A stretch of DNA of 63,818 bases, the filler included, from Sluysia triapertura (lineage: Eukaryota), in assembly GCA_046118255.1 (NCBI GenBank). It is 5 parts of 5 records of this genome, joined end to end, with 100 filler letters (N's around TTAATTAATTAA, not from the genome) between each part and the next. Parts side by side here need not be neighbours in the genome. Positions count along the whole stretch, not along the records: positions 16,045 to 27,110 come from JBJNIA010189408.1; positions 27,211 to 40,190 come from JBJNIA010067178.1; 3 more parts are not named here. The stretch is one strand, 5' to 3'. The first letter of the stretch is position 1, and each line of letters starts with the position of its first letter. The notes beneath the pieces are model-generated. The model had not been told where the DNA came from. It was given only the letters and a program-made list of their open reading frames with translations, and made no database searches. Below, piece after piece: positions 21,231 through 34,093 of the stretch. A program made the translations under genes and the position numbers.

Positions 21231-22440
21231 ATAATATACAAAAGCTTTATAAAATAATAAAAGAAAACAAGATAAAATAAATATCAGAATAGTATAATTT
21301 ACCTATATATCATATAAAAACCTATATATCATAGCAAAAGAAATTTGTCTTACATATTATAACTTAACTTCCACATATTATAATCAAGAAATTTTAACAT
21401 ATTATAGCATATTAAATAAAAATATTGCTGGTTGCCAACCTTTTATTCAAAATTAAAATCATTTTTTCTCACATAATACCTTATATTTCACCTTTTCGCC
21501 CATGAAAACCTTAACTCTATTTTTCAAAACTCTCAACCCATAATTCTTTAACATTGCAACCAAAATTACATTCTTTAACATAGCACAACTACCTTTTCAG
21601 AACATATCAAAACCTTATTTATACGTTATTATTTTTTAAGATCTGCTAAAACCATTTTCATGTCAGAACATTTTAAAAATACAGTTTTACAACACTAAAA
21701 TCACACCTTCATTCAAAACTAATAAAGTACATAAAATTCCCTCGAATTATTTTAACTCACATTTTCACATCATCAAAATTACAATTCACAGTAACAACTA
21801 TCAAACAAACTTTTCAGATTTTATCTAAAACATCTCCGTTCTTAATTCTTCCACATTCATTAACGAAAATTATCAAACATATAAATAAAAAATTAATTTA
21901 AAATATTACAAACTTTACTCTCACCTCAAAACATTTTTAATTCACAACTTTATATTATTAAAACTACATTTATTTCAGATTAACAACGCACATTTAAAAT
22001 TCACCAGAAACAAATCATAAGTACATTTGATAAAATACCACAACTACCTCTTAGAATGTTTCAAAAACCTTTCTATATTTTGTTTCTTTCAGATTCACAA
22101 ATGTTTGGATGCCCAATCAAATTGCAATAAAAGATAATTATTTATAATTTGTATGCGATGTGTAAAGTACCACTATTATTAAAAACGATAGAAAGAAAAG
22201 AAAGAGTCCAATCATTTCCAACAATTAAAATTAACAATACTACTACTACGAAATTATTGTTCGTGCTCAAAATTATTTACAATTGCTTCAGAGCATAATG
22301 AGTTCTGTAGTTATTATTCAATATACTGTTTCAGCACTGCAGTACAAATCATTTTAGTTTTTTTGTTAATTATTATTATAAAATAAAAATGTACGAGTCA
22401 AGTATTGAAGTAAAGAAGTATTGATCCAGGTTTAGAAATT

Positions 22441-23218
22441 ATGATGCATAACGGTATTACATCTACATTTCCACACGAAGACAAATTCATCAAATACATT
22501 GACTGGAAATCATATCGAAGGAGGTCTATCTTTTTTTCATGTATTTACTTGATACAAATATTTGATAACGTCGTTTACTATAAAGATGAAGCTGGTTACG
22601 AAATTTTCATGGTGAATAAAACAAATGTAAAAGATTTAACTCCATCTGAAGCGACGAAATCAAGTCAGAAATTACAGAACAACAACACTGTATATTTCAA
22701 CACCTTACATCTAGATGTGAAACATAGAATATTAGTCGACATAATAATGAAGAAATTCAATCATAACATCGTAGAAAATATTTGTGCTTCGACAGCGGAT
22801 TTCTTGGAAGTTAGTCGAGCATTTTTGGTGAATGGCAAAATGATCATTGTTGTAATGCCACAGTTTCTCAAGTATGAATCACTATGTTACCTATGTATTT
22901 CTCATGGAACTAAGTCTGATCATAAAATTACAGTCGTCTGTTACAGTCAAATGTTAGTTAGATTCAATGTTGAAACTTACCGGGACGATGATAATACAAT
23001 TATAAAATGCAGCATGGTCGAAGTTTATTTTAAACAAAATATAGTTGTCTTTCCAAGTTGAATGTAGAATACATTACAGGACATGATTTGATTTACGCAA
23101 TGCGCTGTTTTACTGGTAAACCTTAATTTTAATTTGATCCATTTAATTTATATGACTGATTTTTGTTTCAGAACTCACAAGGCCAGAAGTACAATAGCAC
23201 GTCCCCAACTCGGCTTGA
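22441..23218 (+). pseudogene. Unknown-family coding unit (206-aa ORF, continuing through stops to a 56-nt intron at 23116-23171)
   Basis: A long ORF in very AT-rich DNA, with weak sequence similarity to and the same 3' intron layout as the unit at 31071-31950. Confidence 0.45.
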
Positions 23219-23459
23219 AGTATAAAGTCAATAAACAATTATGTGTAAAAAAAGTAATATTATTTGGTTTAATAAATAAATGTATGTAAAATTATTATGA
23301 ATTATTCTTATTTCATAACAGATTATAATCCAATAAACATTCTATATCCAAACAACATATTCTTATAACATTTTTGTCATATTACAACTACAATGTTTTT
23401 ACATACAATAACTTTATATAGTAACTCCTTTTGATTTTTTGTTAAATTTTTATTTTATT

Positions 23460-24100
23460 TTAGTCTTCTTCATCCTCAGTATCTGTATTTCTTTGTAATT
23501 TAATATTTCTGTGTTTTGGTTTATTATTATTCGATAGCAAGTTTATTTGGGTATCTAATTTGGTTCCTGCATGTAACCATTTGTTTTCTTCTGTATAATT
23601 TATTATTCTTATTGGAATATTTCCATCACGAATTCTACAATATTCAACCTTTCTTGGATATTCTATGAAGCAATAAACATTATTGGACCATTTCTGAGAC
23701 TATTTGTTTTACCTAGTATAATATATTTAGTTCGACTTAATATCCAATGAGGTTCTTCTAATATAACATCATCATCATCATCGATTGGTCGATCAGTATA
23801 ACTATCCATTAGTCTTGCTTTATTAAAGTCTAATAAGACTCATTTTAATTGTGATAACACATCCATTCCTAATATCATATCTTCTACATTTAATTTCAAT
23901 TTTATTATTTCCAATTTCATATAATACTTTTAGTACTCAGAGAATTTCGATATCATCTCCAGTTACTCCTGTTAAATAAAATGTTGTTTAGGCAGATTAT
24001 TAAGTTCTCTTGTAGTTAATTTTGATTCACTTATTAAAAAAACAACCGGTATCTACCAACGCTGATAACATTCTTCCATTTACCTTCATATCTACCATTA
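23460..24100 (-). pseudogene. Retropepsin (aspartic protease) plus downstream degenerate dUTPase-like beta domain
   Basis: VDMKVNGRMLSALVDTG (DTG 24045-24053), flap LTGVTG, and DMILGMDVL (23861-23875). These are followed by DGNIPIRIINYTEENKWLHAGTKL, resembling the post-protease segment of many Ty3/Gypsy Pol proteins. Confidence 0.8.
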
Positions 24101-24289
24101 GTCTTCTCGCACTATTATAATTATTATTTGCACAGATCATGTAAACTAACTTTCTTTGTGGAGATTGATATAAATTTTGTTTTTCCTCATTTACTTCTTC
24201 TATTGTTTCAACATTAATTGTTTGTAATGCTATTTCTTCTGTTTGCTTTATTTCTTTCTTAAAAGCATTTAATTGAGAATGTGCATGAT

Positions 24290-31070: not shown

Positions 31071-31950
31071 GTGGCTTACAACATTATAACGATCATGCAA
31101 AGAGAACGTTTCATCTTCCAGCGTATGTCATCCAAATTTGTTTATAAAAATGTATTACTCGACTCTCTAGAGAAAGATAAATTAAAATTTAAATATCGGA
31201 ACAATTATTTTGTAAAAATAAAATTAGTTAGTGAAACACTAGTTTTAGATAGAATATTTTATAAATTGTTTAATGAATTGAAAAAATTTTCAAATGCCTT
31301 GAATTATGAGATTAGTGAATTGTATGTCAGTCTCGAGCAAGTGTACAAACATTGATATAAGAAGTTTAACTATGCTACTTTATTGAGTTCGGTAGTATAT
31401 GCAAATCATTTTTCTTTTTTCAAAAGTATGATGTCAAAAAAAGATAAACGGACTTTTAGATCAATTGAAAACAATGATGATGAAGTTACACAAAAACTAG
31501 ACATTGATTATCTTATCATTACACGCAAGCAAATATTAATCAAGATAGATATATTCAACAATGAATCAAAAACTAATCAATTTAAAATTTCTCGTGGTGG
31601 TAACAGACATTTCAATGTAAATACACAGATTTATCCGAATGATGGCAAACAATACAAGGATGGTATTTGTTTGTACGTAATTACACCAACTGGTCAATGT
31701 TCCAGCTTCGGTAAAAGGGTCATTACGTTCATGGTGTCTTAGAATTCAAAGATGGTACCAGTTATCCTGCCTGTTTCAGCGAGCAAACAATCGTATTAAT
31801 GCTGTCCTGTCGAGTTTGGCTATAATGCCGGTAAATTTATTTCATATTACATTTTATTTTTTGATATGAAACTATCTTATTATTCATATTTATTTAGATT
31901 TAATACGAGAAACGCGATCAAACATATTCAGATAATGGCTAAGCAAATTA
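31071..31950 (+). pseudogene. Unknown-family coding unit (split ORFs 31071-31355 and 31383-31742; 67-nt intron 31831-31897)
   Basis: In-frame ORFs separated by a stop; parallels the 22.4-23.2 kb unit. Confidence 0.45.
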
Positions 31951-32868
31951 GATTAAAAATTATAATTTGGCTATGTTTAAATGACATAAATGTATCTAAT
32001 TCTTATCATTGTTTACTTCTATATTTTAAAAATTCAAATTTAATTTGTTTAGAGAAAATTTTTATAAATTATAATTTTGATAATAGATTTACTCTTTCAA
32101 GAATAATTATTTTTAATAAAAGATGCATTTCATTTAAAAACAGACTAAATGTGTTGTCCAGAATAAAATATAATAATATTACTTTACAGTCACCACATAT
32201 TTTTGAATTAAGCAGTGTCAAATTGATTTTAATTGAATTGTTTTACAGCTTTTGGTTAAGTTAGAATAGAGTTATTCGACAAAACATAAATATTATTATT
32301 GTTGATTTCAATTTCTTTATGTATTGGTATTTTAAATTTTGTTGTTTCTTGCGTTACCTCTGCTTTATTTGGATAGATTTTTGTGGTCTTAATATTGTCA
32401 TAAATTTTATTGTTAACTTTGAAATTTAGTTAACACCCAATTAGTTAAATTTAGTTAACGCTTACATATTCCAAGTACTTAGTATAGAATTACCTATACC
32501 TTAATAACATTTCAGCCAAAAACATCATTTCAGTCACAATATCAGAATCAATCATTATACAGTTTCAAATCATCTTAAACATTTCAACATTCCCATATTT
32601 ATCTCTTACTTCCACTTAAAAACATTAATAAACATCTAAAAATCTTTCTGAACATCTACACTCTAAAACACCTTTAGTTGAAACATTATTAATTCAAGAA
32701 CAGTAAAGTATATTCTAACAACTACACAAAACATTCATTTTATTTCAAAATATTAAGTTTTAAGCCTTTATTCTTCACTAGTTTTAATTTTAATATGTTG
32801 AGAAAGAAAAAGAAAGCAATCAAGATCATGTAAAAATTCATTTTTCAAGAGATTTATGCTTTTTTTAG

Positions 32869-32908
<40 letters not shown>

Positions 32909-33169
32909 GTAATATGATTATTAACACTTCGTTGATAATAACACTTCGTTGTTATTATTATTATCATCATTTTAACATAATTTAATCCAATTTAAATTGT
33001 ATCTATGTAGTTCAAAACCAACTGAGTTACTGCCATCCTCAACAGTGACATTTTGCTTTACATTTACAATTTCGTGTCATCACAGTTTGACGTTGATTTT
33101 CAAGTTAATAAAATTAAACTAACCAATTGTATTCATTGTCCAACCAAATCAGTTTTCAAACTCAATATC

Positions 33170-34093
33170 ACCAAAATGATTTTGGTTGAACAGCCAATCA
33201 AGATACAAAATATTCATCCAGCACAATGTTAATGAATGTTAAAAATTTTAAAACTCACAATTTTAATGCGAATACAAAAATTTTACAACAATTCTTTCTA
33301 CTTGATGATAAAAACATTATAATGTCACACAAGTTTAACTCTTATAAAATTGAGCAACTTAAAATTAAAGAATTTAAAAATGCAGATGATAACAATTGCA
33401 TTAAAGTCTCAAAGATAAAAATGATAACGTTTATTGCAAAGATCGTAAAAACTATAATGCCTATTTTAATAATTTTAAAGATGATACGATGATGTTAAGA
33501 ATTATAAAGATAAAGAACATGACAAGTATGTAAAGAATCATAAAGATAAGATAAAGATAAAGTTATCTCAAACATCATCTAAACGGCACTGCATGTGTTA
33601 GCAATTCTATAGACGATAATAATTATCTTGAGAATCATAAAGATAAAGATTATAACAATTCTTTCGAGCATTATAGAAATAATCATGATTACGTAAACTA
33701 TTGTAAAGAGGGTAACGACTATGTTAAAAATTATAAAGTTAAAGATGGACACAAATATTCTAACCATATGAAGATGTTAATGATTATGCCAAGCATTATA
33801 AAGGTAATGATTATGATGATAACATCAAAGAGAATAAAGATGTCATAAAATATCTTAAACAATATAAAGACGATGATCATAATTACAAACAATATGCTGA
33901 TGAGGATGATTATAAAGTTCAACGTAACTATGTTGATCACCATGAAACGAATTCTACTATAAAAGAAAATTATTTGGCTAATATCATCGCCTTTTGCCCG
34001 GATTCTGCAGATGATCAAGGAATTTGCCTGATGAATGGAGTAAAGTGCCAATATGCGCATAAAGTCAACGAATCGGAAATCAAAGAACTGTGA
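33170..34093 (+). pseudogene. Frameshifted low-complexity D/K/N/Y/H-rich repeat coding region
   Basis: Recurrent GATGATGTTAAGAATTATAAAGATAAA-like units read DDVKNYKDK.., ending ...FCPDSADDQGICLMNGVKCQYAHKVNESEIKEL*. Confidence 0.4.

Follow-up and report, generated by a model that had tools for sequence, protein, structure and literature searches.

That long terminal repeat (LTR) elements, Pack elements and Helitrons can capture fragments of host genes is well established and not new in principle. Chimeric retrocopies that go on transposing have been documented (PMC5131818), the LTRs of Ogre elements span 1.9–6.5 kb, and Burro designates cargo-rich gypsy elements of an invertebrate that carry host-like domains (PMC6431247). 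Here we analysed a 63,818-nucleotide stretch of the Sluysia triapertura genome (assembly GCA_046118255.1; hereafter the window), in which a first-pass annotation had proposed, at 21430–34093, a family of non-autonomous elements that supply a common G-depleted leader to interchangeable gene fragments. The window contains one bounded insertion, E1 (29831–32197, plus strand), and a second unit, starting at 21426, whose leader is homologous to that of E1 and is followed by a fragment of the host gene PICK1 in sense orientation. What would be new, if true, is the carrier, with cargo held within one unit bearing short terminal inverted repeats (TIRs) or within one long LTR, in an animal genome; we found no description of this architecture among open-licence papers.

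E1 is a discrete insertion with TG…CA ends

E1 comprises 2367 bp with TG…CA ends and 8/9-bp inverted termini, and is flanked by a 5-bp target-site duplication (TSD), TATTT, at 29826–29830 and 32198–32202. Its junctions read TATTT/TGTGGTGGC … GTCACCACA/TATTT. Scanning the window for TG…CA ends with a TSD returned eight loose matches (1–8 in shuffles), and the strict combination of TIR and TSD, a criterion fixed post hoc after E1 had been seen, returned a single match, E1 itself, and none in 15 shuffles. The same end test on five other units yielded AT-rich candidates only and no convincing termini or TSD.

Joints across E1 came from 20,231 contigs of public run X1 aligned over 27250–34140. Contigs that skip E1 join 29831 to 32220 (n = 3) or to 32256 (n = 2); the 17 letters inside the 29831–32220 joint equal 32203–32219 in length, so this joint skips E1 together with one TSD copy. 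Two paralogous contigs lose alignment at 32181. When joined, the flanks of E1 match an empty paralog of the host repeat at ~34715–34935 (145/258 columns), and E1 lies in the continuation of an abundant repeat at 27480–29549. The insertion of E1 is of integrase type.

The TGG of E1 lies 2 bp in from the terminus, with a mirror copy at the 3' end. Because the ends of E1 map exactly there, the TGGTGG at 29833 is part of the element terminus, and TGG does not serve as a primer site. Measured against the primer-binding-site table of PMC13524379 (five octamers, one supplement file), no named tRNA end matched E1 at 12/12, and a tRNA scan of the window was blank. Beyond the 8/9-bp termini the inverted-repeat signal is background (z −0.3). 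There is no terminal direct repeat either (z −0.4), the sole internal match being between two AT-rich intron-like stretches.

Between its ends, E1 opens with a G-poor part (29831–30360; G 25, C 102) that aligns with 21426–22070 and that we consider a putative promoter and 5' leader; a deletion at 29880 within it is common to 35 contigs. An inverted pair of hairpin motifs follows (30611–30682), and then cargo with broken reading frames (31056–31830), which is multi-copy, as paralogous contigs carry 24–52 differences over 250–340 bp. No parent of this cargo was matched in Pfam, the PDB (one frame), the protein search or the Atlas. The 3' end (31831–32197) contains a GT…AG intron-like stretch at 31831–31897 and AATAAA at 32115 and 32162. 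Pfam, which covered 150 of the 360 open reading frames (ORFs; ≥42 aa) of the window and 18 read-through frames over the cargo zones, gave no match to an integrase-like transposase in the frames of E1, an absence expected for a non-autonomous copy.

Tracts, hairpins and cargo beyond E1

The G-poor leader at 21426–22070 (plus) starts with TGCTGG, and its alignment with 29831 begins at a shared TG(C)TGGT(T/G)GCCAACC, with 407 of 683 columns identical (~60%; z 10.1). The interiors behind the two leaders are unrelated. A hairpin of the ACTG…CAGT type (22325–22345, plus), found by pattern scan, is followed by a 215-codon open frame (22414–23061) that contains an uninterrupted PICK1 fragment at 22540–22845 (plus), comprising the C-terminal half of the PDZ domain and the start of the arfaptin/BAR domain (phmmer E 3.5e-14, 46%). 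At E ≤ 0.001 the frame matched 59 proteins, whose named members are PRKCA-binding protein (PICK1); among 26 scanned matches, 24 contain PDZ and 22 also arfaptin. Residues 43–144 (102 codons) align to PICK1 without an intron-sized gap (43/105 identical), and PICK1 was also matched in the PDB (E 2.8e-5). A word-based protein search with this ORF found nothing within a length band that left out full-length PICK1. One of the supposed unknown-family ORFs is therefore a PICK1 fragment. The fragment lies in sense ~470 bp behind the strongest tract, in the top 1.5% of the null. The right end of this unit was not found, and self-BLAST revealed no repeat pair around it.

All eight named tracts are G-poor and C-rich on the strand given for them, with skews between −0.35 and −0.80 and binomial p values from 6e-4 down to 1e-18, and the top 250-bp skew in the window (−0.82) lies beyond all 100 block shuffles (extreme −0.62). 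G-to-A hypermutation was rejected as their origin: C climbs to ~17–25% and A hardly shifts. The TGGTGG/TGGTTG starts ascribed to several tracts occur at three of the eight (21429, 29833 and 50747), with TGGTGC at 29446 on the minus strand; these hexamers are present 32 times in the window.

Homology was assessed by pairwise alignment of 12 tracts (66 pairs) against 200 order-2 Markov resamples. Two pairs beat the null, both among the 28 pairs of named tracts: 21430 with 29833, at the z value given above, and 29833 with 7170 (z 4.6). Realignment with lenient gaps left 1 of 36 pairs with z > 4. A leader common to all tracts is not borne out, as 26 of the 28 named pairs do not align beyond composition. 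Two further tracts, at 13401 and 50745 (plus), start TGTAATGGTTC and TGTGGTGGTTC, near the E1 terminus in sequence, and have no hairpin, identified cargo or partner end.

A shared ACTG.CATC..CAACAG motif had been reported at three sites. Written in this way, the pattern matches one of them (33029); the copies are better described as ACTG/CCTG…CAGT/CAGG hairpins. Two inverted copies lie in E1 (30616–30633 and 30663–30682), the first in a possible 21-nt AG…GT exon. Others are found at 22325, at 33029–33046 (plus), where no splice donor follows, and at 6906–6923 (minus). All six window hairpins of this form, at four loci, sit ≤700 bp downstream of a tract, in zones that together span 8.8% of the window, and the loci follow four of the eight tracts. 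The pattern was set post hoc, its total is close to that expected by chance (2.95 on average in the null, with 6 reached in 11 of 200 shuffles), and the 22325 hairpin, absent from the original list of three, is the only semi-independent case. Between loci, none of 27 pairs of 120-bp motif surroundings reached z > 4. The conserved spliced mini-exon was not recovered, since AG…GT flanks 30611–30631 only, and at 33045 and 6907 CAG is followed by TG or TT.

Variation among contigs bears on the same motif. Four extra letters at 30623 in three contigs make the first E1 copy match the second, and a variant at 33038, common to 57 contigs, brings the 33029 copy closer to that at 6907; contig alignment is denser at 33038 than 400 bp upstream (8 at 32642). 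Hairpins and leaders folded no better than shuffles (six sequences, z −1.3 to +1.0), and a metagenome scan for the motif gave 0 matches. We read the hairpin as a putative conserved cis element, which may resemble TALE-homeodomain TGACAG sites.

Three further units join a tract to variable content. E2 consists of a G-poor tract (32490–32750, plus; variant at 32526 common to 30 contigs), at which no TG terminus or TSD was found, and of multi-copy cargo (33190–34093, plus) in which a frameshifted D/K/N/Y-rich repeat leads into a CCCH-like finger (33992–34069; zf-CCCH_UNK, E 4.3e-5, below the curated cutoff); a variant at 34001 is common to 34 contigs. As diverged paralogs are present among the contigs, the cargo of both E1 and E2 has been amplified. 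One contig ties E2-cargo-like to E1-leader-like sequence (joint 33230 to 29922), a weak hint of module mixing elsewhere. On the minus strand, a short G-poor tract (7040–7170) adjoins the 6906–6923 hairpin (whole feature 6906–7170), and its alignment with 29833 drops to z 1.8 under lenient gaps from its value under strict scoring. The third unit (3740–5775, minus) has a tract at 5650–5775 followed by broken tropomyosin (5269–5114 and on; Pfam, E 4.2e-5) and DUF5580/C1orf87 pieces (3946–3740; DUF5580_M, E 6.7e-8), with no hairpin or termini found. Both minus-strand units lie outside the annotated span.

Inspection of the cargo confirmed pieces of tropomyosin and of DUF5580, a repeat rich in D/K/N/Y and a weak CCCH finger, and the cargo of different units shows no protein-level alignment to each other. 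The PDB gave no match for one frame of 30600–34097, one of 4402–5478, the tropomyosin piece or a zinc-finger-like scrap at 14243, and the Atlas search returned unnamed clusters only, or nothing.

Host-gene scraps are also found away from the tracts. Decayed fragments of an adenylate cyclase (40921–41175, plus; E 2e-4), an O-methyltransferase (48875–49120, minus; E 0.003) and a DCP1-like C-terminus (50213–50374, minus; E 0.006) have no G-poor leader. An intact 405-codon frame (56138–57352, minus) combines a CSK piece from SH2 to kinase (57271–57035, E 5e-4), a 36-bp tandem D/K/Y/F repeat and a Cys-rich tail; no G-poor tract lies ≤1.2 kb upstream, and a word-based protein search with it returned nothing. 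Recognisable scraps amount to seven genes in 64 kb, or about one per 9 kb of window, in a list drawn from 150 of 360 ORFs and leaning toward closely examined regions. No enrichment of host fragments behind leaders emerged within the window: one of eight (PICK1) has a top-5% tract ≤1.2 kb upstream, and four have none. The tract of the tropomyosin fragment stands at 9% of the null, and the CCCH finger has a tract within 2 kb.

Readings of the tract units and their surroundings

On the reading we favour, and regard as evenly balanced, the tracts at 21426, 29831, 32490 and 7170 (minus) are the 5' ends of non-autonomous elements ~2–2.4 kb long. These elements would be old and diverged, their content variable and in part derived from the host, and a retroviral-type integrase acting in trans would have inserted them. 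With the same even weight, the other four named tracts would be other repeats of like composition. The G-poor part of an element would act as promoter and unstructured 5' leader; the transcript would cross an intron and the hairpin, continue through the interior and stop at AATAAA close to the 3' terminus. From time to time the interior may have been swapped, in some cases for pieces of host mRNA acquired when reverse transcriptase switched templates (PICK1, 22540), and the chimera would then have been amplified. Given that two LTRs and long TIRs are both absent from E1, the simplest carrier would be a long solo LTR, from a family of Ty3/gypsy type, that itself holds the cargo. The PICK1 fragment speaks for this account, with 102 codons and no intron against YjeF exons of ~85–150 bp in the same window. 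Intron positions are conserved in PICK1, CSK and tropomyosin.

Of the proposal of a non-autonomous element family, part stands: E1 is a bounded insertion with leader, hairpin and cargo, the 21426 unit has a homologous leader with different content, and paralogous contigs are many for leader, motif and cargo alike. Helitron ends are not supported, and an exon-shuffling engine was not demonstrated; gene capture may account for the PICK1 unit. We consider it doubtful that there exists a family of single TG…CA units, bearing inverted ends of 9 bp but no paired LTRs or long TIRs, that repeatedly takes up spliced host mRNA, transcribes it from the G-poor leader and spreads it. If true, such a family would explain much of the host-fragment litter and chimeric frames such as the 405-codon CSK-plus-repeat ORF. 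If genome-wide, it would make a strong case of transposon-driven exon shuffling, constitute an annotation hazard and probably give rise to small RNAs that target host genes.

Several points weigh against the favoured reading. Host cargo was identified in the 21426 unit, for which no right end was demonstrated (no TIR or TSD partner in 23060–23470), and not in E1, the element with exact ends; the two are different loci. The joints that skip E1 have 20–25 letters of support on their shorter side, and the window may itself derive from run X1. E2 and the 7170 unit are joined to the others mainly through the post hoc hairpin (leader z 1.8–1.9 and 1.8–4.6). Intron loss from PICK1 is an inference, and the same window holds a 260-bp channel exon. 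No two-LTR flanks, as in LTR-mediated retrocopies, are present. Finally, four of the eight host-like fragments have no upstream tract, so the window is rich in scraps regardless, and PICK1 may have been inserted separately.

These last fragments also agree with a possible account that we rate well below even, in which no capturing family exists: the tracts would be ends or leaders of unrelated decayed repeats with convergent composition, the scraps ordinary retrocopies and E1 a solo LTR with its own ORF. The 26 named pairs without alignment, the tract at 29446, which belongs to a different repeat, and the E1 cargo without a host match agree with it. It does not readily accommodate the homologous leaders at 21426 and 29831 that differ downstream, the sense position of PICK1 so close behind the strongest tract or the clustering of hairpins behind four tracts.

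Improbable in our view is a Pack-type DNA transposon with integrase-like ends, resembling Ginger or GingerRoot with very short TIRs and capturing gene pieces at the DNA level. E1 does form one TG…CA unit, with a promoter-to-polyA layout between its ends and intron-like stretches kept; moreover, 5-bp TSDs are given for TDD-4/5 (PMC2836005), and GingerRoot carries gene fragments (PMC6839031). The 9-bp TIR of E1, with no longer repeat, stands against TIRs described as 40–270 bp (Ginger1), 50–180 bp (Ginger2) and 100–150 bp (GingerRoot), the TSD is given there as 4 bp in animal Ginger and 6 bp in GingerRoot, and GingerRoot cargo retains introns, whereas the PICK1 piece shows none.

Very unlikely are Helitron or Helentron derivatives, with the hairpins as rolling-circle signals and the cargo as read-through capture: Helitrons do capture gene fragments in animals (PMC6431247), and short hairpins with an inverted pair in E1 would suit them, but the TSD and TG…CA ends largely refute this for E1, and no hairpin-plus-CTRR end lies in or near any unit (sole window match at 54785, minus). 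Very unlikely too is a reading of the tracts as the normal 5' portions of genes or pseudogenes of the host. A leader–intron–exon arrangement would suit any gene start, but the intact YjeF gene lacks a tract of this kind (29th percentile), the leaders are multi-copy and E1 has inserted into another repeat.

The window (GC ~24%) consists of five contigs joined by artificial N44-TTAATTAATTAA-N44 linkers at 15945, 27111, 40191 and 52733. The tracts and cargo of the annotated span are present; the span itself crosses the linker at 27111–27210, whose two sides are not known neighbours, and includes a broken env-bearing retroelement and an unrelated abundant repeat. This repeat (27480–29549, minus) contains the tract 29050–29446, which does not align with the E1 leader (z 0.3). 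Its summed contig depth, which is not copy number, is mostly 1.5e5–4.7e5 against 186–1491 over the cargo, an excess of two to three orders of magnitude. Sequence of this kind at 27480–29830, 32203–32480 and 34400–35197 possibly represents tandem non-autonomous LTR-like units, with TGTTGCGTC…GACGCAACA segments at 28179–28553 and 34855–35197 and a CA/TGGT junction at 29446 and 34540 (minus).

The broken Ty3/gypsy-like element (23400–27110, minus) has a viral fusion glycoprotein (PF24664, Monjiviricetes-type; best E 6.8e-17 among four frame pieces) ahead of an aspartic-protease motif (LVDTG, by eye), carries many stops and frameshifts and runs off the contig before reverse transcriptase. Env before protease is the order known from Burro and, in nematodes, bryozoans and flatworms, from GAG-ENV-POL errantiviruses (PMC13524379). 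We found no link between this element and E1. The 21426 unit found no support as its 3' LTR: alignment with E1 fails at the 3' ends (z 1.6), and the env element breaks off past the protease region.

An intron-bearing animal genome is indicated by an apparently intact YjeF-N (NAD(P)HX epimerase) gene at 42196–44221 (plus), with GT-AG introns of 31 (first), ~440 and ~1085 bp and a last exon that was not located, by a voltage-gated ion channel exon at 37929–38190 (minus; Ion_trans E 1e-19; T-type calcium channel-like by eye) and by two inverted mariner relics at 38396–40190 (arms ~90% identical; Mos1 helix-turn-helix match). A relic of 40% GC at 19457–21200 (minus) contains a Ulp1/C48 protease domain (20371–20754, E 4e-8), and we take it to resemble the 5' part of NeSL-type non-LTR elements.

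Relation to described capture systems

As non-autonomous units with interchangeable gene-fragment cargo, the tract units would resemble Pack-MULEs and Pack-TIRs, from which they differ in that those have long TIRs and capture at the DNA level (for Pack-MULEs, as summarised in PMC6431247). MULE TSDs measure ~9 bp. Neither a Penelope-like nor a hammerhead-bearing repeat is indicated: Rfam returned no match in the window at gathering score and none in 29400–33300 at E ≤ 1, hammerhead ribozyme included.

Ginger1, Ginger2/Tdd and GingerRoot share TG…CA termini with E1 and contain introns, as E1 may, GingerRoot holding fragments of one or two genes and TDD-4/5 having 5-bp TSDs, and the Ginger-type TGT…ACA termini are present in E1. 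As portrayed in PMC2836005 and PMC6839031, they differ by TIRs of 40–270 bp rather than 9 bp, by a TSD of 4 or 6 bp in animals and plants and by cargo with introns; the 5-bp value of E1 comes from a single insertion.

The features of a solo LTR of Ty3/gypsy or BEL type (TG…CA, short inverted termini, 4–6 bp TSD) are found in E1 only. E1 falls within the LTR length range of Ogre; Burro and Ogre have accessory host-like domains, and the 23400–27110 element matches them in placing env between gag and pol; in the description of PMC6431247, their extra domains lie in the internal region. Similar in outcome is LTR-mediated retroposition (Tan et al. 2016, PMC5131818), which also yields partial, apparently intronless host pieces behind element sequence, multi-gene chimeras, non-autonomous amplification and integrase-type ends. 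There, as that paper presents it, the cargo replaces internal ORFs between two LTRs, whereas E1 encloses its cargo with neither terminal direct repeats nor a recognisable primer site.

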